The notes under the pieces: model-generated
What the model saw: the letters and a program-made list of their open reading frames with translations, nothing else
Told to the model about the DNA's origin: nothing
Databases searched by the model: none
In this document: positions 2,543 through 62,084 of the stretch, one piece after another
How positions within the stretch are numbered: the stretch's first letter is position 1
How the letters are laid out: every line of letters starts with the position of its first letter
DNA from: Eledone cirrhosa
Taxonomy: Eukaryota
Assembly (NCBI GenBank): GCA_964016885.1
Contig: OZ024741.1
Span: 74,400,001-74,464,000, forward strand
Direction of reading: 5' to 3'
Length of the DNA: 64,000 nt
Program-made: the position numbers and the translations under genes

Positions 2543-3830
2543 AATGGAAGCAAAAGCATTGTGAATCAAATGAAATGCAAAAGTTCACCTTATAATAAAT
2601 CTAGACTGCAAGACAAGTATGCACAGTTGATTGTATGGTGTACTTGGGGATTGAATGAATAGAGGAGTATCACATCACTGGCATGGAAATGGTTTTGTTT
2701 AAATAAATTCTAATGAGACAATTATTTCCAAAAATTGTCTAGATTAGCTAGATTAAATGTTAACTCATTTGATAACAAACAACCTGAAACTGCCCCTATT
2801 CTTTGATACAAAACTGTTTGTTTTAAAGTGTTTATACTTATCTAAAATCCTTCCACCATAATGTTTTAGTTTATGTTCCAGCAACCGACCAAATACTGAG
2901 AAAATCATATTATCCCTTTCCTCTAAAATTCCTGATTATTTTCCAAATCATTTTAAAATCATAAACAATGTATTTCATTTGAAATAAAACTTTCATCATA
3001 ATTCTATGTAAGAACCTTTGTTAGATTATGTTCCAAACATCAACTAATAATGATAAAATTAGTTATATTACAACACCCACTAAATTGTTGATTATTTTCA
3101 AAATTATTTGAAAATCCCTGGCAGTGTCTTTCATTAGAGATATGGTAATGAAAGGGTTTAATTCTAGTGAGACCAGTGAATGGAAGGAACACATCTGGTA
3201 AACTTAGAACACAGTTATTTGATAAAAAGTGCAATATTTAAACATTAAATACATCATTTCAGGTTCTTTATTTAAATAAAATATCAATCTTTGCCCTTTT
3301 GGATTACATTAAATATATAATGACAAACCACAGCAGAGTATTATTATATTTATGATTTATTTCACATAAAACGATTTTCTGAATTCTGGGATTTGTAACA
3401 CAAATCGTTTTTTTTGTTTTTGTTTTTTGCGAATATAATTTTTCTATAAGATTAGTTGAGATGACAGCTGAATGGCAAACTGGATAACTAGATTAGTATT
3501 CTATTATTATTCTTATGTTTTAAAATTATTTTCTTTTTGTTTTTGATTTCACCAGAGTCAACTTTATTCTTTCCTTAATTATTAATCCTTCTAATGACTT
3601 CCAAATAACTTTGAGAATAATCAAGAATTTGGAGGGATTTAATAATATAACTTTCTTATTGTTAAGATAGTGCTGGGAGCATGACTTAACAAACATTCTT
3701 AACAAAGAAACAGTGTAACAAATATAAGTGTTAGTTTTTAGAATAGAAAGTGAGCCATTGCTTTCTGGGATATGGTGTTTATATTGAAGACTAATTAATT
3801 AAATATTCCATGGATTATTAACTCCTGATG

Positions 3831-5647
3831 AAGGAGACGCCCTAGATAGGAGTAACTATAGAGGCATTAAATTAATCGACCAGGTCATGAAGGTCACGGA
3901 AAAAGTAATAGCGCAACTAATCAGAGAGAGAATTGACCTAGATGAAATGCAGTTCGGGTTTGTGTCAGGCAAAAGCACCACAGACGCTCTTTTCATAGTA
4001 CGACAACTACAGGAGAAGTACCTAGCTAAAGGTAAACCCCTCTACTTAGCTTTTGTCGACCTGGAGAAAGCCTTCGACAGAGTCCCCCGCTCCATTATCT
4101 GGTGGGCTCTTAGAAAACTAGGCGTTGACGAATGGCTTGTGAGGGCTATACAAGCCATGTATAAAGAAACAGTCAGCAAGGTTAGAATTAACAACGAATA
4201 TAGTGAAGAGTTTAGCGTAAAAGTTGGCGTCCATCAGGGCTCTGTTCTCAGCCCCCTACTATTTATTATTGCCCTTCAGGCTATAACAGAGGAGTTCAAG
4301 ACAGGCTGCCCATGGGAACTCCTATACGCAGACGACCTGACACTCATAGCGGAATCAATGGCCGAGCTAGAGAAGAAATTCCAAACATGGAAGCACGGCC
4401 TAGAGTCAAAAGGACTTAAAATTAACCTGGCTAAGACCAAAGTTCTAGTTTGTAGGAAAGAAAATGAGGCGGCGGTCCCTTCTGGGAAATGGTCGTGCTC
4501 GGTGTGTAGGAAAGGCGTAGGTAGAAACTCCATTTTATGTCCTAAATGCAAAGTATGGGTGCATAAAAGATGTAGTGGGATCACAGGTAAGCTAACTAAG
4601 AACATAGATTTTACATGTGGCCGGTGTACTGGTGCAATAAGTAGCAGCAAGTGCCCACAAAATACTAGCTCTTTCAATTGCGCAAAAGGTTCTATAGAAA
4701 TAGTGGACAGCTTCCGTTACCTGGGCAATAAAATCAGCAGTGGGGGAGGGTGCTCTGAAAGTACTGTAGCTAGAGTCAGAACTGGTTGGAAAAAGTTCAG
4801 AGAGCTTATACCACTATTAGCTGCTAAAGGGTTCTCCCTAAAAATGAAAGGCAGGTTGTACGATGCCTGCATACGAACAGCAATGTTGCATGGTAGTGAG
4901 ACCTGGGCATTGTGTGCAGAGGATATACGCAGACTAGAGAAGAACGAAGCTTGCATGCTCCGCTGGATGTGTAACAGTAATATACGTGAACGGCAAAGCA
5001 TAAACGAACTAAGGAAAAAATTAGAGATAAGAGGGATCAGATGTTGTTTACTCGAGAGAAGGCTGCGTTGGTATGGACACGTGATGCGCATGAAAGTCGA
5101 TAGCTGTATAACAAAGTGCAGGGCAATAAAGATAGACGGTAGCCACGGAATAGGCAGACCTAGAAAAACCTGGGATGAGCTGATAAACTCCGACCTCACA
5201 CACTTACACCTCTCCAAGACAATGTCACTGGACCGAGACCTTTGGCGGTACTCAGTAACAGAGAAGACCCGCCTTGCCAGTAGGCATCTCTAACAAAATA
5301 CACCCCGTCCCGCCACCACCCCCACCCCATCCACACCACCCCGTTCTATGTAAAGTTATGTTGGTGCCGCGCCATCCAGGCCGAAACAAATGAGATCGTG
5401 TAGGTGTCACGACAAAAAAACACACAGTCCACGCTGTAATGTGGCCGTGTAGGCAACACGGTAAAAACCTCCCAGACCCACACTGTAAATGTGGTTGGTG
5501 TTAGGAAGGGCATCCAACTGTAGAAAACCTGCCAGACAGTCCTATGCGAGCAAGACAATCACTCTTGCCTCAAGTGGGACTACCCCCGTCCAAACCCATG
5601 CAAGCGTGGAACACGGACGTTAAACGTTGATGATGATGATGATGATG
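3831..5647 (+). mobile_element. 5'-truncated RTE-clade LINE (family 1), young copy with uninterrupted partial ORF2
   Basis: Frame is open from KGDALDRSNYRGIKL through the RT motifs, followed by a 3' UTR and (GAT)n tail. TGATGAAGG at both ends (3826-3834 and 5643-5651) is a likely target-site duplication. Confidence 0.95.
3887..5293 (+). CDS. Partial LINE ORF2: reverse transcriptase, PHD finger and RTE C-terminal region (endonuclease lost by 5' truncation)
   Basis: Motifs QFGF, FVDLEKAFDRV, GVHQGSVLSPLLF, LLYADDL, FRYLG, HGSETW, RRLRWYGHVMR and GRPRKTW. C4HC3 motif at 4496-4627. The listed ATG is internal to the original ORF. Confidence 0.88.
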   Translation: MKVTEKVIAQLIRERIDLDEMQFGFVSGKSTTDALFIVRQLQEKYLAKGKPLYLAFVDLEKAFDRVPRSIIWWALRKLGVDEWLVRAIQAMYKETVSKVRINNEYSEEFSVKVGVHQGSVLSPLLFIIALQAITEEFKTGCPWELLYADDLTLIAESMAELEKKFQTWKHGLESKGLKINLAKTKVLVCRKENEAAVPSGKWSCSVCRKGVGRNSILCPKCKVWVHKRCSGITGKLTKNIDFTCGRCTGAISSSKCPQNTSSFNCAKGSIEIVDSFRYLGNKISSGGGCSESTVARVRTGWKKFRELIPLLAAKGFSLKMKGRLYDACIRTAMLHGSETWALCAEDIRRLEKNEACMLRWMCNSNIRERQSINELRKKLEIRGIRCCLLERRLRWYGHVMRMKVDSCITKCRAIKIDGSHGIGRPRKTWDELINSDLTHLHLSKTMSLDRDLWRYSVTEKTRLASRHL

Positions 5648-14999: not shown

Positions 15000-15056
15000 C
15001 TCTCGATAGTTTCGAACGCCAGCTTCCCTAAAAGTTGGCTTGCATCGCATATTTTT
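15000..15056 (-). CDS. DGKZ: Coding exon (57 nt, phase 0/0) of type IV diacylglycerol kinase, end of C1A and linker to C1B
   Basis: Long poly-T tract then ccAG|AAAAAT...CGAGAG|GTaaat translates as KNMRCKPTFREAGVRNYRE (compare recalled DGKZ INFRCKPSFRESGSRNVRE). Confidence 0.94.
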
Positions 15057-19200: not shown

Positions 19201-19416
19201 AACTAAAGAGTCCTCTTGAGTCTTTTTTGCATGGTTTCTTCAGCAAGTTGACTTTTCTATCACCATCCACATTACAGGATGTACTGGGTACATTTTTTTG
19301 CAACACCAACCCTAGAGAGATTATTGCCCATTGACTTAACAGGGTTGGGTAGGGGTTGGGATATGTTGTGGCCAATGGTTGTGAAATTTGACACAGTGGT
19401 GAGTAACCTTTAACAG

Positions 19417-20300
19417 TGCAACCATTCCTCCAGACACAACCAACCTACCACACACAACCAACCTACCACACACAATCATCCAACCACACACAACCATTCT
19501 ACCACACACAGCCATCCAACCACGCACAACCATTCTACCACACACAACTATTCTTCCAGACAACCATTCTGCCACACACAACCCTTCTTCCAGACACAAT
19601 CATTCTTCCAGACACAACCATTCTACCACACACAACCATTCTTCCCGACACAACCATTCTGCCACACACAACCATTCTTCCAGGCACACACACAACCATT
19701 CTTCCAGGCACACACACAACCATTCTTCCAGACACAACCATTCTACCACACACAACCATTCTTCCCGACACAACCATTTTGCCACACACAACCATTCTTC
19801 CAGGCACACACACAACCATTGTTCCAGACACAACCATTCTACCAGACAACTATTCTTCCAGACACAACCATTCTGCCACACACAACCATTCTTCCAGACA
19901 CAACCATTCTACCACACACAACCATTCTACCACACACAACCAACCTACCACACACAACCATCCAACCACACACAACCATCCAACCACACACAACCATTCT
20001 ACCACACACAACCATTCTACCACACACAACCATTCTTTCAGACACAACCATTCTTCCAGACACAACCATTCTACCACACACAACTATTCTTCCAGACAAC
20101 CATTCTGCCACACACAACCCTTCTTCCAGACACAACCATTCTACCACACACAACTATTCTTCCAGACAACCATTCTGCCACACACAACCCTTCTTCCAGA
20201 CACAACCATTCTTCCAGACACAACCATTCTACCACACACAACCATTCTACCTCACACAACTATTCTATCACATACAACCATTTTATCACACACAACATAC
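19417..20300. repeat. 18-bp minisatellite, consensus ACAACCATTCT(A/T/G)CCA(C/G)AC, about 880 bp
   Basis: Directly visible, with 16- and 22-nt variant units and a 70-bp higher-order unit. Confidence 0.95.
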
Positions 20301-21399
20301 ATAACTTGCCTTAAGGAAATATTTGCAGTATTGATAAAAGCTAGTACATATTTATACAATGAAATTACGTGTCCAACTTTATGGAAAGCCAGAGAGACCA
20401 TAATCAATAACCTGATTTCAAGCTAAAAATATCATTATTTATTCAGTTAACAATTAATATAATTTTTACTACCAACCTAGGCGGCAAACTGGCAGAGTAA
20501 TTAGAACATCAGACAGAATACTTTGTGGTATTCGATTACCTCACAGCACCCTATGAGTTCAAACGCCACCAAGGTAAACTTTACCTTTCAAGACTGATAA
20601 AAAAATGTCCCAGTCCAGTACATTCTTCCTATATTTCTCTTTCTCTCTCTCCTTCTCTGGATGAAATAAGCTGCTTTTAGACCTGGAGAGAAGATAGGCA
20701 CTGCCAGGTTTAAAAAAGGCCTAAGACACACCACAATAACTATGTCACCACAGCACCCCATACGACTCCACCAGGGAGTAATGGGTACATACATATTACT
20801 AACCCCGATTCTAATCATGATCTGTCCTGTCACATTCCTCCAATAACTTTTGTACTCTCGTACTTTAGGATGGTCATACAATGACAATAACAAGAAGCAT
20901 TTTAATGAAATTTTTATGCAAATGTAGGGGTTAGCTTTGTGGGTTCCATGACAGATTTCATATTCACCATTAGGATACTTATGAGGCAGTGGTCTCTCAA
21001 CAAATTCCCTTTCTGACAACAACCCTTTCAGTTACTTCTTACAACATGCAGCCATACAGTGTATCAACATTAAGCTGGATACACAAGGATACTAGGTCAT
21101 ACTGGCAATCAAAACCCATATATTGGCTTTGTATTATTAATAAATTAGATGATTAGTTCTTCAGTCAGTTGGTTAATCAATTAATTGGTCCATCAAAATT
21201 CTTTCATCACAGCATGTGACCGTTTTGTACATTCTTTTCCTTTTTGTTGTATTTCACTATGAATCCTTTTGATACCAAACTACTTGAAACTGTCCCTGGT
21301 TTTATAATTCAAAATAGTTTTTTTTAAAGGTTTTGAACTCTGATTGCAAAGAGCTGGACTAGATATCCAATGCTCTAATGACTCTGTCTGGTGGTAAAA

Positions 21400-21735: not shown

Positions 21736-21821
21736 ATAAGATTAATTTTAATCCTTTCATAACCATGTTTCCATAAAAAAACAGTGCCGAAGACATTCAA
21801 ATAATTTAGTTATATAACTAA

Positions 21822-23030
21822 AGTTCTAGTTTGTAGGAAGGAAAATAGGGCGCCGGTCCCATCCGGGAAATGGCCATGCTCAGTGTGTAGAAAAGGAGTA
21901 GATAGAAACTCCATTTTATGTCCCAAATGCAAAGTATGGGTGCATAAAAGATGTAGTGGGATCACAGGTAAGCTAACTAAGAACATAGATTTTACATGTG
22001 GCCGGTGCTCTGGTGCAATAAGTAGCAGCAAGTGCCCACAGAATACTAGCTCTTTCAATTGCACAGAGGGTTCTATAGAAATAGTGGACAGCTTCCGTTA
22101 ACTGGGTGACAAAATCAGCAGTGGGGGAGGGTGCTCTGAAAGTACAGTAGCTAGAGTCAGAACTGGATGGAAAAAGTTCAGAGAGCTTATACCACTATTA
22201 GCCGCTAAAGGGTTCTCCCTAAAAATGAAAGGCAGGCTGTATGATGCCTGCATACGAACAGCAATGTTGCATGGCAGTGAGACCTGGGCATTGCGTGCAG
22301 AGGATATACGCAGACTAGAGAGGAACGAAGCTTGCATGCTCCGCTGGATGTGTAATAGTAATATACGTGAACGGCAAAGCATTAACGAACTAAGGGAAAA
22401 ATTAGAAATAAGAGGGATCAGATGTTTACTCGAGAGAAGGCTACGTTGGTATGGTCACATAATGCGCATGAAAGACAGCTGTATAAAAAAGTGCAGGGAA
22501 ATAAAAATAGACGGTGGCCACGGAGTAGGCAGACCCAGAAAAACCTGGGACGACTTGATAAATTCCGACCTCACACACTTACACCTCTCCAAGACAATGT
22601 CACTGGACCAAGATCTTTGGCACTACACAGTAATAGAGAAGACCCGCCTTACCTAAATACAAAGTAAAACCTACTACAGTCAGTAGGCACCTCTAACAAA
22701 ATACACCCCTGTCCCACTACCCCCGCCCCATTCAATGTAAAGTTATGTTGGTACCACAACATCCAGGCCGAAACAAATGAGGTCGTGTAGGTGTCACGAC
22801 AAAAAAAAACACACAGTCCATGCTGTAATGTGGCCATGTAGGTAACACGGTAAAAACCTCCCAGTTCCACACTGTAAATGTGGTTGGTGTTAGGAAGGGC
22901 ATCCAGCCATAGAAAACCCGCCAGACAGTCCTATGCGAGCAAGACAACCACTCTTGCCTCAAGTGGGAAAACTCCCGTCCAAACCCATGCAAGCGTGGAA
23001 TATGGACGTTAAACGATAATGATGATGATG
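21822..23030 (+). mobile_element. RTE family 1 copy, 5'-truncated and disrupted, inserted into a MITE
   Basis: Very similar to 4440-5647, with a TAC>TAA stop at about 22099 and small deletions. (GAT)n tail. AACTAA is duplicated at 21816-21821 and 23031-23036. Confidence 0.93.
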
Positions 23031-25480: not shown

Positions 25481-26054
25481 AAATATATGTGTGCATTGGT
25501 ATTATTAATAAGTATCTAATACACATATTTTAAATAAAACTATTTTTAGTTTTGTACCCAAGAGTAATTCTTGTGATAAAAGTATTTTTTTTAATGTGAA
25601 TGATTATTTTTATTTTTGTTATAAAAAGACATTAATGTAAATCAAAAGAAACTTATTACATAAAGAAATTGAAAGATTTTTTACATTTCAGTAGTTTTGC
25701 TTTTATGAAACTGAAACAAAAATTAATAATCTGGTTATTTTTAGTGCACATCACAGGAAAGAAGTGTGTAATAAATAAAAAAAATTATCAATTTACTAAA
25801 TATTTATTCAGTATTTCTATATTGTTAACTCATCCCACAAGAAAAAAGAAAAAAAAATCATCACTGTTTATTGTCTATTTTCCACACATGCATGGTTTAA
25901 ACAAACTATAATGTTATGAAGCTAAGCAGGTCAGGTTACCATGTCTGGTTCATATGTTCCCTTTTTTAAGTATTTTTGTATGGCTGGCAGTCCTTCCTAA
26001 AGCTAACCATTTTACAGCACGTACAGGGATTTTTTGTGGCATCAGCATTACCAT

Positions 26055-27142
26055 ATGAAATAGGTTCTATCGAATGCTCAGATGGCTCTCTAGAAATAGT
26101 TGACAGCTTCTGCTACCTGGGTAAGCAAATTACTCGTGAAGGTGGGTGTTTAGAAAGTACAGCCAGGGTGAGAACAGGTTATAAAACATTCAGGGAGCTA
26201 CTACCTAGGCTAGTTACAAAGGGGTTTTCTCTCAGAATGAAAGGGAGATGTTTGTATGCAAACCGCAATGCAAGACTTAGGCACTGAATGCAGAGGATCT
26301 GAGATGACTGGAAAGAAATGAGGCAAACATGCTCCAGTGGATGTGTAATAGTAGTGTAAAAGAATGAGATATTGTTAATAGGCTGAGAGAAAAACTGGGC
26401 ATAAGAAGGATCAAATGCAGAGTACAAAAGAGAAGATTGCACTGGTTTGGCTATATGATGTGTATGAAGGATAAGAACTGCATAAAGAGCTGCAAGTCCA
26501 AAGTTGAGGGAATCTGTGGAAGAGGGAGACCTAGGACAAAATGGTAAAGACTGACCGTAAAAAGTTGGGCACTGCAGAGGAGATGACACAACATTAAGAC
26601 GAAATGGTAAGACTCATATCCCTATACAGGTGGGGTGAAAGGCAGAAAGCTGTATCAACACCTAGGCTGCCTCTTCCAGCCTCTTCATTAGCTATTCATA
26701 CACTTGATCTCCCCCACCATAGGCATTCCTCCACCCTCTTTTCTCACCCACATCCCTGACTCCTACACAAAGATAGATGCACCTTAACTGTACTGTTTGA
26801 TGCTGCTTGTTCACTCTCTTCCTTTCCACAATACCTACCCTACGACCCAACATTCTCCCACAACTAACGCTGTCCAACTTATCCCCAAATTTCCATGCCA
26901 CGCTCCCCCCAGAAACACAATACTCCAGACATCACTCACTGACCTAAGACCCCCCCCCCCCTCACACCCATTCATGTGGTGAAATGGTTGGTGTTACAAA
27001 AGTCATCTAGCCATAGAAACTATGTCAAAATGGAATGTAGAAGTAATACACAGTTGTCTGACCTGTCTGTCCAGCCTCTACATGACAACTCATCTAACCC
27101 AAACAAGCATGGAAAATAGACATAAAACAGTGATAATGATGA
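26055..27142 (+). mobile_element. Older degenerate RTE family 1-like 3' fragment
   Basis: GSLEIVDSFCYLG and RVRTGYKTFRELLP, with stops, a C-rich UTR and a GAT tail. Similar old fragments occur at about 23525-23810 (+), 31810-32180 (+) and 46420-46620 (-). Confidence 0.78.
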
Positions 27143-28735
27143 TTATCATATATCATCATCCTCATTTACGTCCGTTCTTCCATGCTAGCATGGGTTAGAC
27201 GGGATATATATATATTAAAATAACAGATTAAAGTTTAAGCAAAGAATCGCTGCTTTCACCCTTAACAGGATTTTCATATGCTTACACACATATACATATA
27301 TCTTCCTTCTCCTATGCCCCCCCCCTCCCCCCACAGAGCAAAAAGGACTCTTCAGGTGGGAGAATAACCAACACCTTCTCTAGTGTTGGTGTCACAAAAA
27401 TGAATCCTGTTCAACCCGTAAGGTGGTTGGCAATAGGAAGAGCATTCTGCTGTAGAAACCATGCCAAAAGGGTGGGAACAATCCTTCAGCTGAGTCAATG
27501 GTAGAACCTCACTAATGTTGGTGATCTACACAATAAACACACCCGATAATTGCTGTAAATTGGTTGGTGATAGGAAGGGCATCAAGCCATAGAAAGCTTA
27601 CCAAACAAAGGGTTAGGAGAACCCTTTAGTTGTGTCAAAGACATGACAACCTGGTGCTGGTGATCTACACAATAAACGGACCCAGCCATAGAAAGCTTGC
27701 CAAACAAAATGTATGAACACTTCAGTTGTGTCAAAAACATGACAAATTCTCTAGTGCTGTGACCATGATAAAATGTTCTTGGTAAAGTGTGAGACTATGT
27801 AAGTGACATGAAGAACCTCGGCCTGTCTGTGTGGTCACTAACCCTGCTTCAGTACTGACTCATCCAACCTTTGCTAGCAGGGAATGCAGACATTAAGTGA
27901 TGATGATGATTATGAGGATGTATATACATACGCACATATATATATATATATAATTATATAAACCTCTAATGCTATCACATACAATGCTAACAGCCATTTG
28001 GATAACAGACAAATTAATTATAATATCTAGAAGTCTAGAGAATGAGAAAATAAAATATGGTGGTCATGATCAGACATACAACAGAGGGGGAATATTTTAC
28101 AGTTTATTATTATTAGAATGTTTTAAAATAGATAATAAAAGACATTTCAATTGCAGAATAAATTTCAATGTTATCATTTAAATATTTAAATATTTTTATT
28201 TTTACACTCTGTTAGCTTGGATTAAGTACGGCTGTCTACATGAAATAGACTTAAGTAAATTCAAAACCCCTGTGTTCATTGGTGTGGAAGTGCAGTAGTA
28301 GCAGTCACTTTTTAAACACTTTTGAGGGCATATTTCTATCAAGACAATACTGTTTTTCTGTTTTAATTATCAAAATAATCAACAATTTTCAGAGGTTTAA
28401 ATCTTAATTTGAACACTTTAATAGAAGCTATTTTTGGCAGGTTGGTATTTATAAGGTTAAGTCTGCTTTCAATGCTAAAGCAAAAGTTAGCCTTGCGAGA
28501 CCCTATGAGAGGTTTTTTTAAACAATGCATTATGGATGAATGCCGTAAGAGGCCATCATTTTCATTGTTGTCAGATTTTTAATATTTATCACACAATTTA
28601 CATTGTGGTAGCTTTCAAACAAAACGCTATGTGTGTGTGTGTGTGTCAAAAATAAAATACACAGAAAGAACAAAGCAAACGACACAGTACAATGAAGAAA
28701 TATATTAGTTTAACACTTGATATAGTAGGAAAAGA

Positions 28736-28773
28736 ATGTTAATGTTTCGGACACTAGTCCTTCATCAGAAGAT
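28736..28773 (-). ncRNA. Minimal hammerhead ribozyme motif, degenerate copy
   Basis: AUCUU-CUGAUGA-A-GGAC(UAGU)GUCC-GAAAC-AUU-AACAU. Core boxes and stem II are intact, but stems III and I are mutated relative to the copy at 41393. Confidence 0.6.
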
Positions 28774-28817
28774 AGAATTAGAAAGGTAAAACCATGCACA
28801 TATATATATAGATAGAG

Positions 28818-28947
28818 GTAGTTCCACAACAGTTAGTTCACCATAGCGAGAACAATTGTTTCACCTTATTTGGATCATCAGCTCTGATGATCCAAATAAG
28901 GTGAAACAATTGTTCTCGCTATGGTGAACTAACTGTTGTGGAACTAC
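28818..28947. repeat. Perfect inverted repeat with 64-bp arms and 2-nt spacer
   Basis: 28818-28881 is the exact reverse complement of 28884-28947 (checked base by base). Confidence 0.95.
28848..28884 (-). ncRNA. Minimal type I hammerhead motif (left arm of 64-bp palindrome; mirror copy on + at 28884-28917)
   Basis: GAG-CUGAUGA-UCC(AAAUAA)GGU-GAAAC-AAUU-GUU-CUC. Confidence 0.6.
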
Positions 28948-29072
28948 ATCTACCAAACTTGTCCCATGGACTGAGTCCTCTACTACTATGGATATAACCC
29001 AGCAGTGTTCTACTATTTTATATATATATATATATATATATAAATAGTAACAAAACAGTTAGTTCACCATAT

Positions 29073-29111
29073 CGAGAACAATTGTTTCACCTTATGCGGA
29101 TCTTCAGCTCG
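29073..29111 (-). ncRNA. Minimal type I hammerhead motif
   Basis: CGAG-CUGAAGA-UCC(GCAUAA)GGU-GAAAC-AAUU-GUU-CUCG, with a 4-bp stem I and palindromic stem III. Confidence 0.65.
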
Positions 29112-29221
29112 GACTGGTAATGGTTATATGGAACAGGAAGAACAACCGTATGAACACACATGCGCAGAAACAGTCACTTCACCCAAGCGATACAAAACCA
29201 CGGGCAAAAGGTGTAAGGGAG

Positions 29222-29421
29222 ATAATAATAATAATTGTTTCTACGTTTGGCATAAGGCCAGCAATTACCCAGAGCATTGGGTACTTTATTTTATCGACCC
29301 CGTAAGGATGAAAGGCAAAGTTAACCTCGGCGAGATTTGAACTCAGAATGGCAAGGGCCGTAATTCTATACGTCAAAGCATAGCGTCCGACCCTCTACCG
29401 ATACTGCCAATCCACCGCCCT
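29222..29421 (-). mobile_element. SINE family A full copy
   Basis: Reverse-complement match, flanked by GATAATAATAAT on both sides. Confidence 0.9.
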
Positions 29422-29425
29422 AGCG

Positions 29426-30340
29426 ATAATAATAATAATGAAATTATTGTGTAAAGTGCTCAGGTGCACTACAACTCGTCAAAAGTGCATGTATAGTACA
29501 TAGAATAATACACAAATGTCAGGGAAGTGAATAGTGTATGAGTCATGATATACATGTGTGTATGTGTATGGAGGGGGAACATTAGGTGTAGTGTTGGCGA
29601 ATCTCGGGAAGCATGGAGGCCTTAAAGGATGCAGTGTCTTGACAGCTAACAACCGATGCAGGTAGTTTGTTCCATGCTTCAGCAACTCTGAGCGTGAAAA
29701 AATGTTTCCGAAACTCATGGGAACTGTACTGTTTTCTGACTTTGTGGGCATGCCCACGTGTATTAGACACATGGAAATCAAAAAGGTACTCAGCGTTGTT
29801 GTTGGCAAGATGGTTAACAATTTTGTGGGTGTTTACCAAGTCAGTTGCCAGATGTCGGAGCTTCAATGAATCCATGCCCAGGGAAGCAAGGAGCTCAGAG
29901 TATGGTAGATGCCTGATGGAGGGTATTCGCTTGGTTGCACGTCTCTGAACAGTTTCCAGGAGGTTAATGTTCTGAGCAAGATAGGGGTTCCAGACTGGTG
30001 ATGCAAATTCTAAGTGTGGCCGCACCATAGCCATGTACAGCTTTAAATAGATGGCTGGAGAGCGGCTGACAAAGGTCTTGCTGAGTGATGCTAAGACACC
30101 CTTGGCCCTCTTGACAATTTTAGAGACGTGCTTCGTCCAACGCAAATCGCTGCTGACCATAATGCCCAGGTCACGTTCACAAGAAGACTTCTTGATATTA
30201 GTGCTGTGGAGGGAGTATGTGGACACTGGGTTTTTACTCCCAAAATGCATGGTGGTGCACTTGTCCACAGCTAGCTTGAGTTGCCAGTCTGAGATCCATT
30301 ATTGTATTGTTTCCAGGTCAGATTGCATGCAAGATCTATA
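29426..30340 (-). mobile_element. 5'-truncated CR1-type LINE (C-terminal ORF2, 228-aa frame 29582-30268)
   Basis: KCTTMHFG, ERDLGIMV, RPHLEFASPVWNPY, LETVQRRATK, TRGH and FFTLRVAEAWNKLP are CR1/L2-group motifs. (ATT)n tail. Confidence 0.9.
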
Positions 30341-32587
30341 ACTGCAAATGTCCGGAATAAAATGTTCGAGTTGATTAGAAATACGGATATTACCTTCCAG
30401 TGTCCTACTTCTCTCTATATATATCATCACTTTTTAATGTCCATTTTCCATGCTAGCATGTGTTAGACAAGTTGTCCCATTGTGAGACAAGTCAGCTCAG
30501 ATGACCATGTCTTGCTCATACAGGACTGTTTCTGGCTTGGTTTCTACAGCTGGATGCCCTTCCTAACACCAACCACATTTACAGTGTGGACTGGGCACTT
30601 TTTGTCATGGGACCAAAAAGACCACTTTACTGTGTGGACTCTTATGCTCAGTTTCTCTCTATGTTCAAGGTGTATAGCAGTCAAGGTGTTTAGCTTATGA
30701 TTGTAAGGTCAACAGTGTGATTCCTAGTGACACATTTTGTCCTTGAGCAAGACACTTTACTTAACATTGTTCCAGTCCATTCAGCTGGTAAAAACGACTA
30801 GTAGCTGTAATTCAAAGTACTAGTCTTGTTAAACTTTGTTATGCTGATTCTCTCTGAGAACTACATTAAGAGTACATGTTTATGAAATGCTCAGCCACTT
30901 GCATGTTGATTTCACAAGAAAGCTGTAGTGTTGATTGAATCAACTGAAAGTCTCACCATCAGAGTCAACAGAGATCCAATAGATGATATGGAATTTTTGT
31001 GAATTGATATTTATAAAAGATTTTCCACCAATAAACAAACAATTCAAGCCAATGTGGATATTTACTAAATTAAAGAAACACAACAAAACAAGAACAACAT
31101 AAAACAAGAAACAAAATATTTGTAATAAGACACTTTAGTCAGTCTGTTGCACATTAAAAATCAACAATAACAAATATTCAAATATCTGTATTAGTCCCCT
31201 GTGTCAGTAAAAAGAACAAAACAACTCTAGTTAAATTTATTTCTCTAAAGTTATCAACATTAATACAAATAACATTTTGCAAACAATTCTTCAAGGAAAT
31301 TAATTTTAATTTGAATAAAATTACTAAAAAGATCAATGTTAACTATTATCTCTCATCAACTCTTTTACTGGTTTCATTTATTAGACTATGGCCCAGCTGT
31401 GACACCACTTTTAATGGATTTAGTAAATCATATCAACTCCAAACTCAGTTTTTCAAGGCTTGTACTTATTTTATCAATATTGTAATTTTCCTAATTTTTC
31501 ATAAATTCTTTTTTTTTTATCAATCAAGTCAAAGAAATTTGTGGTAGAAGTAGGCTAAGGAAGACTTGAACAGAAGTAGTGGACGTGGATCTCAGGATCA
31601 TGAAAATCACAATGAAGATGACAAATAAAAGAAGTAAATATCAACCTAAGGTTGCTGAAACTCACAAAGGAGATGACACAGGAATGAGAAAAGTGGAGGG
31701 AAGGTGTACCAGAGAAGTGCTCAACCTATGAAAGCAATGATGATGAAACAAAAGTTTCCTTGGAATAGCAAATGTCAGCGTTTCAAAATATCTGTGTAAA
31801 GAGTGATGTTACATGTTAGTGAGCCAAGGGTATTGAACGTAAAGGATATGGAAAGATTGGGGAAAGTAGATGAAGCATGCTCTGTTGGATGTATAATCTT
31901 AGTGTGCATGAACAACAAAGCATATATAAACTGAGAGAAAGGCTATATATATGAGGTATCAAATGTAGCTTGCAAGTGCCATTAGTTCTAAATGGAAGGA
32001 AGTTGCATAAGCAAAAAACCAAGGAAGATCTGAGCAAAAAATAGAGAATGCAAACCATAGGATTCTGAAAGTCCTAAAAGAGACGACAGAGGAAGGAGAA
32101 AAGTGGAGGGAAGCTGTACTGGAGAGAACTTGTCTGACCCATGCAAGCATAGCAAACCAGACATAAAAATGATGATGATGAAATAATCGAATATTTTTTC
32201 CTTGGTTGATAGTTCACTTCATATTCAATTCAAAAATGAAAATTTTTCTGGACCTCTTAATGACTTTTGCCTCAGGATACTCATAATAAATGGTGTGTTT
32301 TACATAGTTATTATCAGAAACCAAATAATAAGAAGCTGTCAGAATTCCTTAAAATAAACATATATTAAAATATAAATATGGGTTTAAATAACTGCACAAA
32401 AAAAAGTGTTTATTGAATGTTTTAGGATATTTTCATTTTCTTGTCTTCTAGACAATACAAACATATTTTTGGGGTTGTTTTTACTTTCATTTCAATCACT
32501 CACACACACACACATCACACACATTACACACATGTGTGTGGGTGTATGTACATATATATATTATCATTATTATTATTGGCGAGTGAA

Positions 32588-36294: not shown

Positions 36295-36369
36295 CTTTTC
36301 TAATAACCCCATACACTCTTTATGCGCAACAATTTTACAAGCGACACACTTTTTCCTTGGACCAGATTT
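36295..36369 (-). CDS. DGKZ: Coding exon (75 nt, phase 0/0) of type IV diacylglycerol kinase, core of C1A domain
   Basis: ttcattttattcttcAG|AAATCT...GAAAAG|GTaagt translates as [25 protein letters not shown] (compare recalled DGKZ [25 protein letters not shown]). In frame with both neighbouring exons. Confidence 0.95.
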
Positions 36370-40890: not shown

Positions 40891-41392
40891 CTCTAGGACT
40901 TATACAACTGTTGTCAACAAAGCTTTCACTAAAACAGTTTAGACATCTTTTGTCCTTTTAACATTGTATTTTCTTTCTCGTTTTATTTGTATATATACAC
41001 ACTGACTATATACATATATATATACACACACACTGATAATACATTAATACACAGGGAATATATATATATATATATATATGAACTGACAACAAATAAATCT
41101 GAACTCAATAGAATGAGTAATGAAGTGGTTAGTCACTTTGCATGACTTTTAAAATACGTTGTCCAATATACTCAGAGCAGTATGCAGGCAAGGCTGTGCG
41201 GTTAACCAGTTTGCTTCACAACCACATAGTGTCAGGTTCAATTTGTGGCACCTTGGGTAAGTGTGTGGAAGCCCAGGGTGTGTGTGTATATATAAATATG
41301 TATGCAAAAGGCAAACAGAAATAACAAAGCAAATGACACAGTACAATGAAAAAATATATTATTAATTTTACACTTGATATAGTAGTAAAAGA

Positions 41393-41430
41393 ATCTTAAC
41401 GTTTCGGAAGATAGCCCTTCATCAGAAGAT
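41393..41430 (-). ncRNA. Minimal type I hammerhead motif with loopless palindromic stem III
   Basis: AUCUU-CUGAUGA-A-GGG(CUAUCU)UCC-GAAAC-GUU-AAGAU, with a 5-bp stem I. It sits in a roughly 130-bp repeat end shared with 28660-28780. Confidence 0.68.
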
Positions 41431-42039
41431 AGAATGAGAAATTAAAGAAGAAATAGAAAGATTGAGATGGGCAGAGCAGGAGCGAGAAAAAAAATATTTT
41501 AGAGAAAAATAACAGGTCCATTCATGTTGCCATCTCTTGGAAAACTGTTGACGCTGGTGTTTATATATATGTGTGTGTGTCTGTTTATGTCCTGCAACTA
41601 TGTGGTATGACAAAAAGAGATCAATGAAGTGTGTGTCAAACTTGATAATTATGTACTGAGGAACATCCTGCCCCAAAATATAAACTATATTATTATTTAT
41701 GCTAACCACCTTCACGTATTATATTTTGGAATGCCTAACAACATTAAAGTTCCTCAATACTAACCAGGCCCATCACCAAGAGAGGTGGGGAGGTGAAGTA
41801 CATGGCACTGGTATCCATTTTAATGGTGTACCCTTAGGTTTTAAAAAATGTGCGATGATATGCTTATTCTAAAAATTTGTCTTAGATTTATTGTGAATTA
41901 GAGAACCCACCCAGAATGTTCTGAATACCCCCACCCCAGTACTAAATCCTGATGATGACCCAGACACTACCTTATTGTCACCTAAGTACCACAGATAGTT
42001 ACAATAACAAGAACTTTAGATACTGTATGTCTATGTCTT

Positions 42040-42450
42040 CATTTTGTCCTTAATTACTAGTTGGGATGTTGCTATTCCACTCAGGTTTTCTGCTTAATTT
42101 TGATTGGAGTTTGTTTATGTTTGTCGCCTCTGTGATTTGTCTGAGCATTGCATCTTTTCTGTGTGTGGATATAATTTTTATTTCTATGTTTTTTAATATG
42201 CCCCTATGTTCTATTTTGGCACGTTGGTGGTGTACTGATGAGTTTTTCCCATCCTGGAGTTCTTGCCAGTGTTCAACTATCCTTTCTCCTATGCTACGGG
42301 CTGTTTCACCTATGTATGTTATGTTCTTATTCCTACACTGTCATTCAGTGCATCTTATGCTATATACTACGTTCCTAGTTTTGCAGTTAGTTTGCAGGCT
42401 TAGCTTGCAGACTATGCATTTCTTATCAGTACAAAGGGATCTTTGAAATG
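42040..42450 (-). mobile_element. Penelope-like element remnant C (GIY-YIG domain)
   Basis: CIVC...CKTRNVVYSIRCTE*QC...YIGETARSIGERIVEH...RQITEA...KPEW. Confidence 0.85.
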
Positions 42451-45400
42451 GGTCCGGATGTAACGCATGCGAAAATTGAGCACACAACACACAAAAACAA
42501 GATCGTGTAGGACAGAACAAAGGAGAGACACAAAATAAAAACCTAGTCACTGGGAAGGTCACAAAATGTGATGAAAGAGCTTTGACAATATATAAACAAC
42601 CATCCAGTTATCGAACCAACCAACTGACTGGGAATTTATAATAAATTGAAGTGAAAACCAACAGGTGCACATGTTTTTATTGGGAGCATGACCCTCCCAA
42701 AGTATAACAATATCTGTTTCAACACATGTTTTCAGATAAGAAATCTTACAAAACAAATTAAAAAATGAAGTATATATATATATATATGTATGTAGTTGAC
42801 ATACCGAGAGATATTATATATATATATATATTCATAGAATAATGAGAAAAGCTCAATGCAAGAATAGCTGTTAAAACAGCAGAAGTGATAGGAAGAAAGG
42901 AGAAAATGATTCATTTGCTCCTCTTTTCCTATCACTTCTGCAGGCCACACACTTCTAGCTGCTGATTTCTGTCCTTTGAGGTAAATTTTACCTGATGCTG
43001 TCATTGATTTTGTTGTTTTAACAGCTATTTTTGCATTGATATATATACATATATATTTATTTAATTAGAAAGTGAACAACACAAAATATAACTACTCCAT
43101 TACCAAAGGTTTCTGGATCACAGACGATAATAATATGTCTGGATTGTTTGTCAGACAGAGATGTTATCTATCTAATTAAATAGCTCTGTTCTATACATAG
43201 AGCACTCTTTTTTCCTTTGCTTTTCCCTTGGAATTACCTAACACACATACACACATATATATTTATATAAAACCCATTCAAACATGGGAAATAGATGTTA
43301 AATGAAGATGATGATATGTATATCATATATACTTCTGTATAACTCATATTTTACCTTGAAAATACAAGAACAACCAGCATGTGACTTATCTGCTGGACAT
43401 ACAAAACCTTGATTCAAAATATATGGTGAATTGTTAATCTTGTCCATAAAATTGAAGTACAATTTATTCATCTGTTCAACTTATACATGAGTAAATATGC
43501 TAGTTATCTTTCCACAAAAATAAAGGAAGGAAAAATTATTTGAGATTAATATTATTATTCAGGCTATTTTCATTATAGTGTTAGGGTTTGCAGTATTTAG
43601 TTATGGCCATTTATGTTCTGAGTTCAAATTCTCTCAAGGTCAACTCTGCCTTTCATCTACCAGGGGTTGATAAAATATGATGTAATTGGCTTTCCCCTAC
43701 CAAGAAAATAAATATATGGTCTACACAAAGAAAAATCTATTTAACTTTCTTATTTTTAGTTGATAGCTGGCCAAGTATTTTTCTTAATTTTTTTTCTCAA
43801 CCATTGTCAATGTTAGATAGTGAGTACCCCCTTAGTTTTGAAAGACTCAAAACAAACTCACTAGTGCTGACATCACAATAATATGCACCCTGTACACTCT
43901 AAACCGAGATAATGTAAGATTGAGAAGACCATTTTTGCTCTACCAAAGCACAAGTTCTCTAATGCTGAAGTCATGATAAAATGCACCTAGTGAACTCAGT
44001 TAAGTGGTAGTACTGTACACTCTGTAAAGCAGCTGGTCTCAGGGAGGGAATCCAGCTATAGAAACCATGCCCAAAGACCCATCTAGTTTCAAACCGTGAA
44101 AACCCACCTAGCATGGAAAATGAATGTATGATGATAATGAGCTGAATGTTACCAATCTTCTTTCAGTCCAGAACCACATGGTTTACAAAGCAAACTTCTA
44201 AACCACAGAGCATCTATTTGTGTACTTAAAATTAAAAAACACGAAAATCTCAATCCTATACATAAAGAAGCAGTGAAATTTCTAAGAAATTAAGATACCA
44301 ATAGAACAAACACACAGATTACAAATAACACTAGATATAACAAAACACAGTTTAAAATATCAGAAGACAGAAACCAGACTGTGATAAGCAACTTCAGTTA
44401 ATCAGTTCCACCTTGAAAACTGAAACTAAAGGAGTGATAACATAGACATACTCTCTTCAAACTATCTTCTAATAAGACAGCAAGAAAAATTGTTCTATAG
44501 AAGGAAGTGGAAAAGACAGCCATAAATACATCTACTGATTCAAAAGGAACCTTTTGATACCAACACCCCTGACACAAAACTGCCTCTCATTCTGTAAAAT
44601 AAAACCACCCATTATAAAGTATTAATATTTTCTAATGCAATTTGATATAAGTTATTTATTAAGTTATATTACAAATTATATCGTAATAACAAAATATTGA
44701 ATTCATTTGTATACAATTTGTAGAGAGAGAGATTGATAGATAGACAGTGTGTGCAAATTGTCATGCCTACTCTTTCACTGTAGTCACAAGAATACTAATA
44801 AATATGTTTATTTCATGACTTTTAATAGCAAAATTTATCAAGAAATTTGAAGTAGGAATTAAAGTTGAAGTTTTGCATGAGACAACAGGACAGATTATTC
44901 TGTTGTTGAAATAATTAAAAATATTAGTAAATTTATCCAAATTATTCATTAATTAAATGAAATACTGTGTAGTTCATTTAGAATATGGTCAGAAATAATC
45001 AATCCTTTTGATACTAACCTGCCCAAAACCAACCATTATAAATGGGTTCCTATCTAAATAAAAGCCTACCAATACTATTTGATATAAGAACTATTTCTTA
45101 TTTATGTTACAAATACCATCTTAATAGAATAATAATTTTACAAAATCCTTCCAAATTCTTAATCAATTAAATGAAATACCATTATGATCATGAAAGGGTT
45201 AAGATAAAGTAATATAATTTTGTTCACAGTAGCCTTCTGTACTGATTCATATTTCATATTTAATTATTAATTCACTAAATGTTTTCATTACCAATAAGTG
45301 CATAAATCTATGAATTAAGTCATGTGTAATTAAAACTATAATATTACAACTAGTATTACTACAATACTAATTAGTATTACCAATACTAATTAGACTAACT

Positions 45401-57831: not shown

Positions 57832-59388
57832 CATCATCATCATCATTTAACCTCCATCTTCCACGGTTTTGTTCCATTTGATGCGGGATTGGTCTGGAGA
57901 CCGTGTCTCGCTTATACGCAAGTGTCTCTGGCAGGTTTTCTATGACTAGATGCCCTTCCTAACAACAACCACATTTGCAGTGTGGACTGGGAGCCTTGTT
58001 ACCATGTCTCTTACACAACCACTTTACAGTGTGGACCGGGTGCTTTTTGTTGTCTCACCGACACAGTGGACGGAAATGAGAGGATGGGGTAGGGTGTGTG
58101 AGGTGGGGTGTATATTGGGTTAAGAGATGCCTACTGACTATAGGTTTGTATGCAAGGGTAGGCGGGTCTTCTGTACAACTGCATGGTGCCAAAGATCTCG
58201 ATCCAGTGACATTGTCTTAGAGAGGTGTAAGTGAACAAGGTCAATTCTTATCACCTCGTCCCAGATTTTTCTTGGTTTATCCACTCCATAGTTTCCATCA
58301 ATTTTCATTGCTCTGCACTTTTTTATACAGCTGTTATCTTCCATACGCATCACATGGCCATACCAATGCAATCTCCTCTCCAGAACACAACATTTGATAC
58401 CTTTTATGCTTCGTCTCTTTCTCTCAATTCGTTTATACTGCGCCATTCGCGCACATTACTATTACACATCCATTGGAGAATGCAAACTTCATTTCTTTCT
58501 AATCTACGCAAGTCTTCAGCACACAACGCCCAGGTCTCACTATCATGTCATATCGCCATTTGTATACAAGCATTATACAATCAGCCTTTCACTTTTAGAG
58601 AAAAACCCCTTCTGGCCAACAGCGGTATTAGCACTCTGAACTTTTTCCATCTCGATCTAACTCTGGCTACTACACTTTCAGAGCACCCCCCTCCAGTGCT
58701 GATTTTGTCACCCAGATAACGGAAGGTGTCTACCATTTCTATAGAACCATCTGGGCAGTTGAAGGAGATATCATCCAGTGGGTCGTTGCTACTTACTGCA
58801 CCTGAGCATTGGCCACATATAAATCTACATTCTTAGATAGCTTGCCTGTGATCCCACTACATCTTTTATGTACCCATAATTTGCATTTGGGGCATAGCAT
58901 GGAACTTCTACCTACTGCTTTCTTACACACTGAGCATGGCCATTTCCCAGAGGGCACCTGTGCCCTATTCTCCTTTCTACATACTAGAACTTTAGTCTTA
59001 GACAGTTACCTCTAAGGCCTTTTGATTCTAAGCCATGCTTCCATGTTTGGAACTTCTTCTTCTCTAGTTCAGCCATGGATTCAGCTATGAAAGTTAGATC
59101 ATCTGCATATAGAAGTTTCCATGGGCAGCCAGTCTTAAACCATTCTGTTATAGCTTGTAGGACAATAATAAACAGGAGGGGGCTAAGGACACAGCCCTGG
59201 TGAACCCCTACCATTACACTAAATTCTTCACTATATTCATAGTTAATTCTAACCTTACTGACTGTTCCTCCATACATGGCTTGTATATCTCTCACAAGCC
59301 ATTGATCTACTCCTAGTTTTCTAAGAGCCCACCAGATTAAGGTATGTGGGACTCTGTCAAAGGTTTTCTCCAAGTCAACAAAAGCTAA
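57832..59388 (-). mobile_element. RTE family 1-related copy, frameshifted, between (TA)n tracts
   Basis: Minus-strand ORFs include LAFVDLEKTFDRV, LLYADDL and RRLHWYGHVMR. PHD remnant at about 58800-58940. (CAT)n tail at 57832-57846. Confidence 0.92.
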
Positions 59389-59419
59389 TATATATATATA
59401 TATATATATATGACTAAAA

Positions 59420-60395
59420 TCCAAAGAGGGCTCGATAAGGATAAATATATATCAAATATATAAGAATCGTAGAGCAAATATTTATTAAAATAACAGATTA
59501 AATTTTAAGAAAAGAATCGCTGCTTTCACCCTTAACGGGATCTTCTGAAACTAAAATAATCAATCTGTGAGCGCAGAAGTAAATATTTCAAAAAACGTTG
59601 CAACCGAAGGAAGACAGGAAGACAATACTTTGGTTCGTGGAAACGTTCCCTGGCAAAGAACGGAAAAACGAAGATAATACGTCATTATTTGGAGCGGTGA
59701 AAACAATTACACGCAAAGATAAAACCACGTTTGTGGTATAAATGAAGTCGTAGACTAATATTCTATTAGGTGGTTCGTGGAGACATTCTCCAGCAATGAA
59801 TGGAAAAAATGAAGATAATACTCCTTCTTAAAGGGTTAAGAAAAGAATGGGTATGCATGTAAAGACGCTGCTTGAATCTATTGGCGATTAACCCTATGTA
59901 GGCCCTACGGGACGTGGGTGTTTCAACCTTACATTTGTAGACAATGTTACTAGAGAGGCATTTCCCGGATAGGGGGCAGTCAACCCAATTCCTACAATTA
60001 CAGTTAGTACTAGCTACAGGGTTGCATGTGTTCCTACGGCTAGGTAATTTAGCTAAATTTGAAGCAGTGATGTTATGTGCAAGGTTAGGAGTCGTAGAGT
60101 AAATAATTTAAATGGTATTTCTATTAAAAATTTTACTATATATATGTGCTGGGGGGAAATGCTTCATAATAAGGGAGAGAAAGCTAATGGTGTGGCCACC
60201 TCCATATTATATGGTGGGTTATACCATATAATGCGTCGGGATCTATTTTTCCTAGGTCTATTCTCATACTCTGTATATGCTACCTTACCGACAAATCCAC
60301 TCCGAGCAAGAGCTTCATTGTAATATGTGGAATGGTCGGTGAAGATATGCTCGTTTGTAGATAGACGGGAAAGCCTCAGGGTTTGTATAGCTTTT
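59420..60395 (-). mobile_element. Penelope-like element remnant A (RT C-terminus, GIY-YIG endonuclease, 3' end with hammerhead-like motif)
   Basis: Hand translation gives RLSRLSTNE..., RSRRIIWYNPPYN and NCNCRNWVDCPLSGKCLSSNIVYKCKVETPTSRRAYIGLIANRFKQRLYMH. Flanked by (TA)n. Confidence 0.85.
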
Positions 60396-61254
60396 ATATT
60401 CTATATATATATATATATATAAAAGGGTAAAGACCCCCTTTGGTCATGAATGACCATGGGATTTGCACCTAGAAAGTATCCTTCTGAGGCACAAGTCTGG
60501 GCAAGGTTGTTTGTGGAAGACTAGCAGTCACCCATGCATACCACCTTCCCCTCTTGACGCCACCGATGATGTCCAAGGGAAAGACAATGACCGACACAGC
60601 TTGCACCAGTGATGTCACAACTTATTTCACATATATATATACACACACACCCATCAGGGAAAGTAGGTGTTAAATGATAATGAATGAATAAAAAATAAGC
60701 TTCTGCATATCTTTAATTACTAGATTTCAGTTACAAGGGTTCAATCAACCAAGAGCTATGACTCAGAACATTTAATCAAGATGTTGCATATGAGATCAAG
60801 TTTTGATATCAAATCACCTTAAACCACTCCCAGATCTATGATACAAGACTTTTCTTTAACCTGTTTATATTTATCTAAAGACCTTCATAATTTATGTAAG
60901 AAACTTTTTTAAGACATGATCCAAACACCAACTTAATAATGAGTAAGTTAGTTACTTTACAAAATTCTTCCAAATGTCTGATTATTTTCAAAATGATTTG
61001 AAAATCATGGGCCGTGTCTTTCCTAAGAAATATAGTAATGAAAGGGTTAAAAAATAAATTCAATCGGATGTGAAATTCTATCTGGCAAAATGGTAAAAGA
61101 ATTCCATCATGTAATTCTCCCTGGATCCTATTTTAATTGAATTTATATGGAGGAAGTAAACAATCCCTTATGGGAATACAATTAGAAAATTGATGGTTTA
61201 TTAACCTTTGTGGTAGGAAATTAGAAAAAAGGAGAATATGTGTATGACCATTCT

Positions 61255-61965
61255 TTTCCTCTCTTATTACGTGGTGTGTGTGTGTGGGAATCTAACGAGG
61301 GGGGGGGGGGGGTGATTACATATTTAATTTTGGTTTAAATTTGTTAATAAATAGTTTTTCTTTATTTATTCTTTGTTGTTGAGTGAAAGAATCGGGGCAC
61401 TTGTAAAGGGGAAAGATTATAAGTTGAGTAGTGTCATTCCTGCCCAATCTGCAATGTGGCTACTTAAAGGGATTTTTCTTGTGCTTACGTCTTGGATTTG
61501 TTGGCGATGGATGGTCATTCTTTTGCTTAATGACACACCCGTCTTTCCTATGTAGTTATGTTAACAGCCACCACATGTGATTACGTATATCAGGTTTTCT
61601 GAGTTGCAAATGAAGTTGTTTTTTACTGTGAAAGTTTGGTCATCTTTAAATGTGAATTTTTGTCCTTCAATTAAGTATAGGCATGCGCCACAGTTTGTTC
61701 ATCTGTATATTGTTACCGTAAGGTTGGAGATTGGTTTGTGTATTTTTGTTCCAGTGAGAATGTGTTTTAGTGATTTGGGTTGCCTTTCACTTTTAATGAT
61801 CTTGTGTGTTTCTATGATTTTTTTTCCTTTTTCATCTTTGAATAGAATGGGGAGGTTTTTGTGTAGGAGGTCGAACATTTCGGTGCTTCTGGGGTTGAAG
61901 GTGGATACATATGGTAAGGTATTGTTTTTGAGAACCACAAATGTATTGATTACTTGTCTCAGCTT
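61255..61965 (-). mobile_element. Penelope-like element remnant B
   Basis: LPYVSTFNP, RQPKSLKHILT, CGAC and NLIYVITCGGC*HNYIGKTG...RMTIHRQQI (GIY-YIG). Confidence 0.85.
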
Positions 61966-62084
61966 ATAAATGGGGTTTAGATTGTTGCCTATTTCTCAGA
62001 CATAAAATAGAGAGATGTCGGGAAGGCAGCGGCTCATATTTGAGTATATACAGAATATATATATATATTGTATATTTAGTTGAA

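Follow-up and report, generated by a model that had tools for sequence, protein, structure and literature searches.

Do the hammerhead ribozyme cores that lie close together in an intron of a DGK gene form a self-cleaving switch, or are they remnants of retroelements? We addressed this in a window of 64,000 nucleotides (64 kb) of Eledone cirrhosa, in which the original prediction had seen four such cores of two families, two of them as a potential dimer in the DGK pre-mRNA, with one of the two able to be held in a hairpin instead. The cluster is very probably three retroelement end-pieces lying side by side, with the hammerheads as likely passengers and no cutting dimer predicted. A switch, if real, would mean that an intron of a signalling gene contained a regulated ribozyme, and the evidence is against it; the locus itself matters little, being one among thousands of such remnants. 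What is of wider use is that the short insertions of the family behind three of the cores record where reverse transcription starts, stops and is joined, which bears on an open question in the sections we consulted of two studies, namely the role of the hammerhead in Penelope-like elements (PLEs) and the origin of their inverted copies (Craig et al, 2021, PMC8557442; Frangieh et al, 2024, PMC11167929).

The host intron and its three insertions

A coding exon with the second half of a C1 domain (36295-36369, minus strand, ag/gtaagt ends; Pfam C1_1, E=0.001, under the curated cut-off) forms the 5' border of the host intron, and the following DGK coding exon (15000-15056, minus strand), which is in frame, forms its 3' border. 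A DAGK_acc match was found on the minus strand ~112 kb past the window start. As the two exons are in frame on the minus strand and the DAGK_acc match is on the same strand, the cluster lies, as had been proposed, within a DGK intron (21.2 kb; 15057-36294, minus strand), with three cores in the sense orientation. A probable further DGK exon (HLWVETSASGDSCYV...), carrying the C1 domain's first half, is at ~53050-52980 on the minus strand.

Scanning both strands of the window for CTGANGA-N6-25-GAAAC gave five strict cores, compared with a mean of 0.71 and a maximum of 4 in 100 dinucleotide shuffles. Four make up the cluster, with C3 at 28768, 28881 and 29107 on the minus strand and at 28884 on the plus strand, and the fifth is at 41425-41402 on the minus strand (C3 at 41425). 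The positions of the four cores and their division into two families were therefore confirmed, and so was their geometry. A direct repeat (28800-28887 and 29026-29113) places the two sense copies, expected about 225 nt apart, at a spacing of 226, and an inverted repeat (28813-28881 and 28884-28952), with 69-nt arms that are 99% complementary (one mismatch), accounts for the hairpin around one of them.

The cores had been described as minimal type I hammerheads of PLE ends, which is right as to kind, but of the four just two appear able to adopt the type I fold. These are the 29107 copy, which has a 4-bp stem I and is the best kept of the four, and the 28881 copy, which has a 3-bp stem I and is sequestered; both retain every core base plus the ACAAUUGU palindrome. 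The plus-strand core at 28884 has AGCT where the 5' strand of stem I should be, and no stem I partner. In the 28736-28773 copy, stem II is intact, stem III has ACAU in place of ACGU (a C-A mismatch) and stem I has AACAU in place of AAGAY (a C-C mismatch). The motif search suggested with the original prediction recovered the cores by pattern, but no Rfam match reached the gathering cut-off: Hammerhead_1 (RF00163) gave only sub-threshold matches of 18 and 14.4 bits (cut-off 34). Low-scoring Rfam miRNA matches were put down to the generic hairpin.

We split the region into insertions using BLAST against copies of the families taken from the genome. By these matches, the cluster is three independent insertions of abundant, mostly Penelope-like elements, each ending at TA or CA repeats. 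Insertion 1 (28628-28791, minus strand) is a 5'-truncated short repeat of family A that ends at (TA/CA)n; its minimal hammerhead (28736-28773, minus strand) is decayed in this copy, judging from the pattern scan and from a comparison with 56 family copies. Insertion 2 belongs to subfamily B2 of family B. Its inverted short arm (28813-28884, minus strand) contains the DGK-sense hammerhead with C3 at 28881 and a predicted cut at 28851/28850, which is entirely within the hairpin, and its long arm and 3' tail (28884-29016, plus strand; core at 28884) end at (TA)n. The long arm is antisense in the DGK pre-mRNA and is complementary to both sense copies (99% and 89%).

Insertion 3 (29039-29225, minus strand) is a family B1 3' end with the short terminus, with C3 at 29107 and a predicted cut at 29077/29076. 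It is interrupted by two nested repeats (29225-30337), in which Pfam gave no match: the first, at ~29225-29440, we take to be a very abundant SINE-like repeat, and the second (29582-30298, minus strand) is presumably a LINE-like ORF fragment. Insertion 3 then resumes at 30338-30381 (minus strand) and is closed by an inverted piece of 3' tail followed by (TA)n (30382-30416, plus strand). Insertions 2 and 3 represent the sister subfamilies B2 and B1 and differ in both their upstream and downstream letters. Genomic reads over the cluster were swamped by other repeat copies, with no piece spanning the cluster.

We also considered whether the cluster is a non-LTR retrozyme. Such elements are likewise PLE-derived and non-coding, with a type I hammerhead, but as described in the parts of the reports at hand they are built of units repeated in tandem, head to tail, every one of which has its hammerhead (Cervera and de la Pena, 2020, PMC7229834; bioRxiv 10.64898/2026.07.22.740005). 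The separate insertions, the two subfamilies and the antisense arm between the sense copies rule this out.

Two families of hammerhead-bearing elements

Three of the four cores are family B 3' ends. The 34-nt family B core occurs 584 times without mismatch in the 3.0-Gb genome (296 forward, 288 reverse), and a reversed-control pattern 0 times. Several of the 30 loci obtained with the B1 query (L032, L033, L035, L036, L043 and L044) carry ORF pieces that lie upstream of the hammerhead and share its strand, and among the family B loci (L032-L046, L199-L206) an RT is followed by a C-terminal GIY-YIG-type endonuclease. The ORF pieces include the DKT motif (SDKTNN in two loci), the RWK motif as an RWR variant (RLRWRA in one of the two), a CxCX5C linker (CSCRKPEAC), and CxxC and CxH flanking the conserved E and N (CGLCIEE, LNSRN..CPH). 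CCHH is absent from them, with no cysteines between VVY and YVG, and the copies are flanked by (TA)n insertion sites. Pfam RVT_1 matched only faintly (E=0.077) in one of six ORF pieces, the Atlas neighbours were animal RT-type clusters (0.94-0.95), and no intact ORF was seen among the copies read.

Placed by these motifs, family B is the 3' end of a Hydra-clade PLE, a clade defined, in the portions of the source used here, by DKT for DKG, RWK, CxCX5C, CxxC/CxH, absence of CCHH, and (TA)n (Craig et al, 2021, PMC8557442). The Naiad clade was ruled out by the C-terminal position of the endonuclease. With the C-terminal EN+ PLEs of the Hydra clade (including Hydra-1_Obim of Octopus bimaculoides), family B shares RWR/DKT, CxCX5C, CxxC/CxH, the absence of CCHH, (TA)n insertion and inverted 5'-truncated copies. 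In many families of the published table, as in family B, stem II is both preceded and followed by an extra U, and H17 is U, but stem II in the table is 3-7 bp, whereas that of family B is 2 bp with a 6-nt loop, and the family B hammerhead differs from that of Hydra-1_oBim (PMC8557442).

The U-U closure of stem II and the GUU triplet had been read as possible signs of decay. This does not hold, since both are fixed in family B and many published Hydra-clade hammerheads are alike: across 162 family B arms, T is found at 10.1 in 161, at 11.1 in 158 and at H17 in 159. Besides CpG changes, the common variants over the same arms are at N7, loop II and loop III, which are the positions that the hammerhead leaves free. 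As variants are mostly confined to these positions, the source elements of family B appear to have kept the motif.

Three short probes did not find family B in the supplement of Craig et al (2021; PMC8557442), and neither the family nor ribozyme-centred junctions are described in the mostly open-access literature that we searched on octopus and cephalopod hammerheads and on Penelope twin priming. Apparently unlisted, this Hydra-clade family, whose hammerhead has a stem II of 2 bp, is a new family of a known retroelement-ribozyme kind, its motifs real and its origin ordinary. Reads of a related organism, at 96% likeness over 28400-29215, covered family A heavily and left the family B cores uncovered, weakly hinting at a younger or lineage-restricted family B.

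Family A conforms to the consensus of metazoan PLE minimal hammerheads, which as given in the sections consulted has an unpaired base between 9 and 10.1, G10.1-C11.1, a loopless palindromic 15.2-16.2 and a helix I of 4-5 bp (Cervera and de la Pena, 2014, PMC4209133). The 56 family A copies show the core, a bulged base after A9, G10.1-C11.1, the palindromic 15.2-16.2 and a helix I of 4-5 bp; the 28736-28773 copy itself departs from the consensus pattern. The published elements, like those here, occur in thousands of mostly single copies, and opposite-strand pairs 100-700 bp apart have been reported (PMC4209133); by comparison, G10.1-C11.1 is absent from family B. No parent or PLE ORF for family A was found among the copies compared, so its PLE origin is read from the motif and termini only. 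Among the 56 copies, 22 have G and 30 have A at position 16.2, and C11.1 has turned to T in 17. By these counts, there is CpG-type decay inside the motif, as expected of unselected copies. A common 5' start near CCAAAATGGCTG, ~115 nt above the core, is found in the copies examined for it (L207-L236); we take this sequence to be a YY1-like motif. The defined start suggests that family A is a short non-autonomous element.

A second family A copy is present at 41287-41543 (minus strand) in the next DGK intron upstream, with an eroded stem II and with stems I and III intact (AUCUU/AAGAU, ACGU, GUU). At 42024-42794 there is a GIY-YIG fragment (Pfam E=0.0045) that belongs to a different PLE family, with an adjoining repeat, and many copies occur among the fetched loci. 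A link of family A to this fragment (42050-42340) was ruled out, as no fetched locus matched across both.

A proposed origin of the family B hairpins

The original prediction had treated the hairpin as part of a possible intronic switch. To count hairpins, we drew an unbiased set by taking every copy, 48 in number, that matched exactly a 54-nt pattern downstream of the ribozyme, with the 5' side ignored; a palindrome query (at least 80 matches, 40 scored of 1247 candidates) is biased to hairpins. An inverted arm was present in 33 of the 48 copies, and the other 15 were non-palindromic. B2 insertions are short in most cases, and roughly two thirds of them have the inverted arm. As the hairpin is the usual integration product, no locus-specific role is needed, and the switch is left unsupported.

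Two alternative 3' termini, ~65 nt apart, close the family B copies, and nearly all inverted arms of the 33 end at the same short terminus, ~+69 from C3. Hairpin junctions differ from copy to copy, over ~120 nt of positions. Among the 48 copies either arm can extend further upstream, and the short arm often extends further than the long arm, which disfavours simple self-primed fold-back as the sole route. Of 75 hairpin loci, 72 had enough overlap for the two arms to be compared; the set is mixed and includes picks from the palindrome query. The arms agree at subfamily sites (37 of 45, 46 of 50 and 58 of 62, with 14.6, 27.1 and 31.9 expected), and their mean difference is 6.7%, compared with 9.5% for cross pairs. 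This agreement, together with the variable junctions, fits two cDNAs of one source at each insertion. The arms of the window hairpin differ at only 1 of 65 sites, so this copy may be young, or homogenised, or kept, which we counted against reading the cluster as debris.

A related process has been described for the Anolis Poseidon PLE PAc, in which, according to the sections consulted, both strands are nicked and extended, two internal RT start sites define the tail, uncut RNA is the main template, and the hammerhead without protein does not cleave (Frangieh et al, 2024, PMC11167929). Going by genomic copies alone, family B shares the two 3' termini and tail, the AT-rich target and presumably the uncut template, but PAc belongs to another clade, and the family B tail is ~65 nt. 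In the route that we propose, the element protein would nick both strands of a TA repeat, and reverse transcription would begin at two internal sites of uncut RNA from a single source. Both cDNAs would stop near the 5' edge of the ribozyme and would probably be joined there via short self-complementary stretches, giving a hairpin with one long arm and one short arm.

The 5' ends of the sense arms were then placed relative to the ribozyme in the 48 copies. They fall at +6 to +50 in 19 copies (hazard ~0.011 per nt), at -15 to +5 in 17 and at -40 to -16 in 7 (hazard ~0.04 per nt), and beyond -40 in 5, where the ends are approximate, the bins were chosen post hoc and a length effect may contribute. 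Two of the 48 ends are within 2 nt of the cut site, with no pile-up there, so cleaved RNA is unsupported as the main template. The pile-up of ends at the 5' edge of the ribozyme suggests uncut templates and joining at the ribozyme helices.

Insertion 3 has a putative 64-nt element intron (29114-29177, minus strand), running from GTGACT through a pyrimidine-rich stretch to CAG and ending exactly at the 5' strand of stem I. Across the family, 45 of the 50 copies whose upstream sequence is natural have YAG directly before stem I, where it follows a pyrimidine-rich stretch and lies ~64 nt below GTGACT. The D. virilis Penelope intron, given as 75 bp (PMC2377424), is similarly described as ending at helix I (PMC4209133). 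The putative mini-intron in the window is DGK-sense and might provide the host intron with a cryptic acceptor.

Tentatively, the hammerhead of family B might be an integration structure and not a nuclease, with reverse transcription of uncut RNA from two start sites stalling at its 5' edge, where the element intron would end, and the two cDNAs joined via the self-complementary ribozyme helices; we regard this as possible and, on balance, doubtful. If true, ~65-bp ribozyme-centred hairpins genome-wide would silence their own ribozyme in host transcripts and would also supply editing substrates.

It is improbable that the hairpin is instead a MITE-like unit amplified whole, or that its arms were later homogenised by gene conversion. 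In its favour, some junctions recur (17 exact 6-nt-spacer centres, several identical), and a few non-subfamily variants are common to both arms, the window copy included. Against this, the spread of junction positions is wide, non-palindromic copies exist in the same subfamily, and a mean arm difference of 6.7% indicates that gene conversion is not pervasive. The two termini also match the two-start-site tail signature as outlined for the anole element (PMC11167929).

Predicted folding of the cluster in the DGK transcript, and other repeats

With the hairpin read as a product of two-site reverse transcription, what remains is how the end-pieces would behave in the DGK transcript. Along the DGK strand the order is the 29107 copy, the antisense arm, the 28881 copy and the family A copy. 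In simulated folding of the growing transcript, the antisense arm paired with the 29107 copy and was then taken by the 28881 copy. On DGK transcription the arm would thus be expected to pair first with 29107 and then, more stably, with 28881; since a single antisense arm serves both sense copies, one of the partners would be hidden at all times. The predicted cost of folding over the free ensemble was +84 kcal/mol for the dimer, +64 for both monomers, +50 for the 28881 monomer and +6 for the 29107 monomer, on nearest-neighbour energies that leave out tertiary contacts and proteins.

That the 29107 copy has stayed nearly intact, with its fold just 6 kcal/mol away, was also counted against the debris reading. 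This copy could have weak, unregulated activity by itself, as a protein-assisted monomer or in trans with another family B RNA, after the antisense arm has been taken up by the 28881 copy. Its intact core, 4-bp stem I and 18-bit Hammerhead_1 match agree with this, as does the anole PLE hammerhead, which is described as cleaving in the presence of its protein (PMC11167929). However, stem II is 2 bp, one stem I pair that the family has is missing (G to A at 1.5), single minimal hammerheads are reported without cleavage in the relevant part of an earlier study (PMC4209133), and none of the copies read has an intact ORF. We consider such activity decidedly unlikely.

Another core of any kind was found within 1.5 kb at 15 of 55 B2 loci and within 500 nt at 6 of 55. 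For a B copy that was independent and on the same strand, the count within 1.5 kb was only 1 of 55, which makes the pair in the window uncommon and was likewise counted against the debris reading. Lunse et al. are reported to have worked, in 2017, on short PLE hammerhead dimers. It is hardly credible that the two sense copies, dimerised via the palindromic stem III, cleave the DGK pre-mRNA under control of the hairpin or of A-to-I editing: both keep all core bases and the palindrome at their 226-nt spacing, and PLE hammerheads are described as weakly active as dimers (PMC4209133), but the copies come from different subfamilies and insertions, the antisense arm transcribed between them is complementary to and pairs with either, the dimer costs +84 kcal/mol, stem I of the hairpin copy is only 3 bp, edits that open the duplex would probably also strike core adenosines, and routine integration already explains the geometry.

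Several other repeats were noted. A third hammerhead-like family (CTGATGA TTTCT..CGAAT GAAAC AGTT CTA, with U-U beside the core) was seen at six fetched loci, and still more hammerhead-like families at two further loci and others. In the window, broken ORF pieces at 59766-60400 and 61699-61995 (minus strand) resemble PLE endonuclease and linker regions, with no Pfam match. A 496-aa RT-like ORF with a Cys-rich insert is located at 3803-5293 (plus strand), with decayed sisters at ~21800-22660, 26000-26600 and 58100-59450, and short units repeated in tandem form a long array at 19336-20314, where several frames are open.
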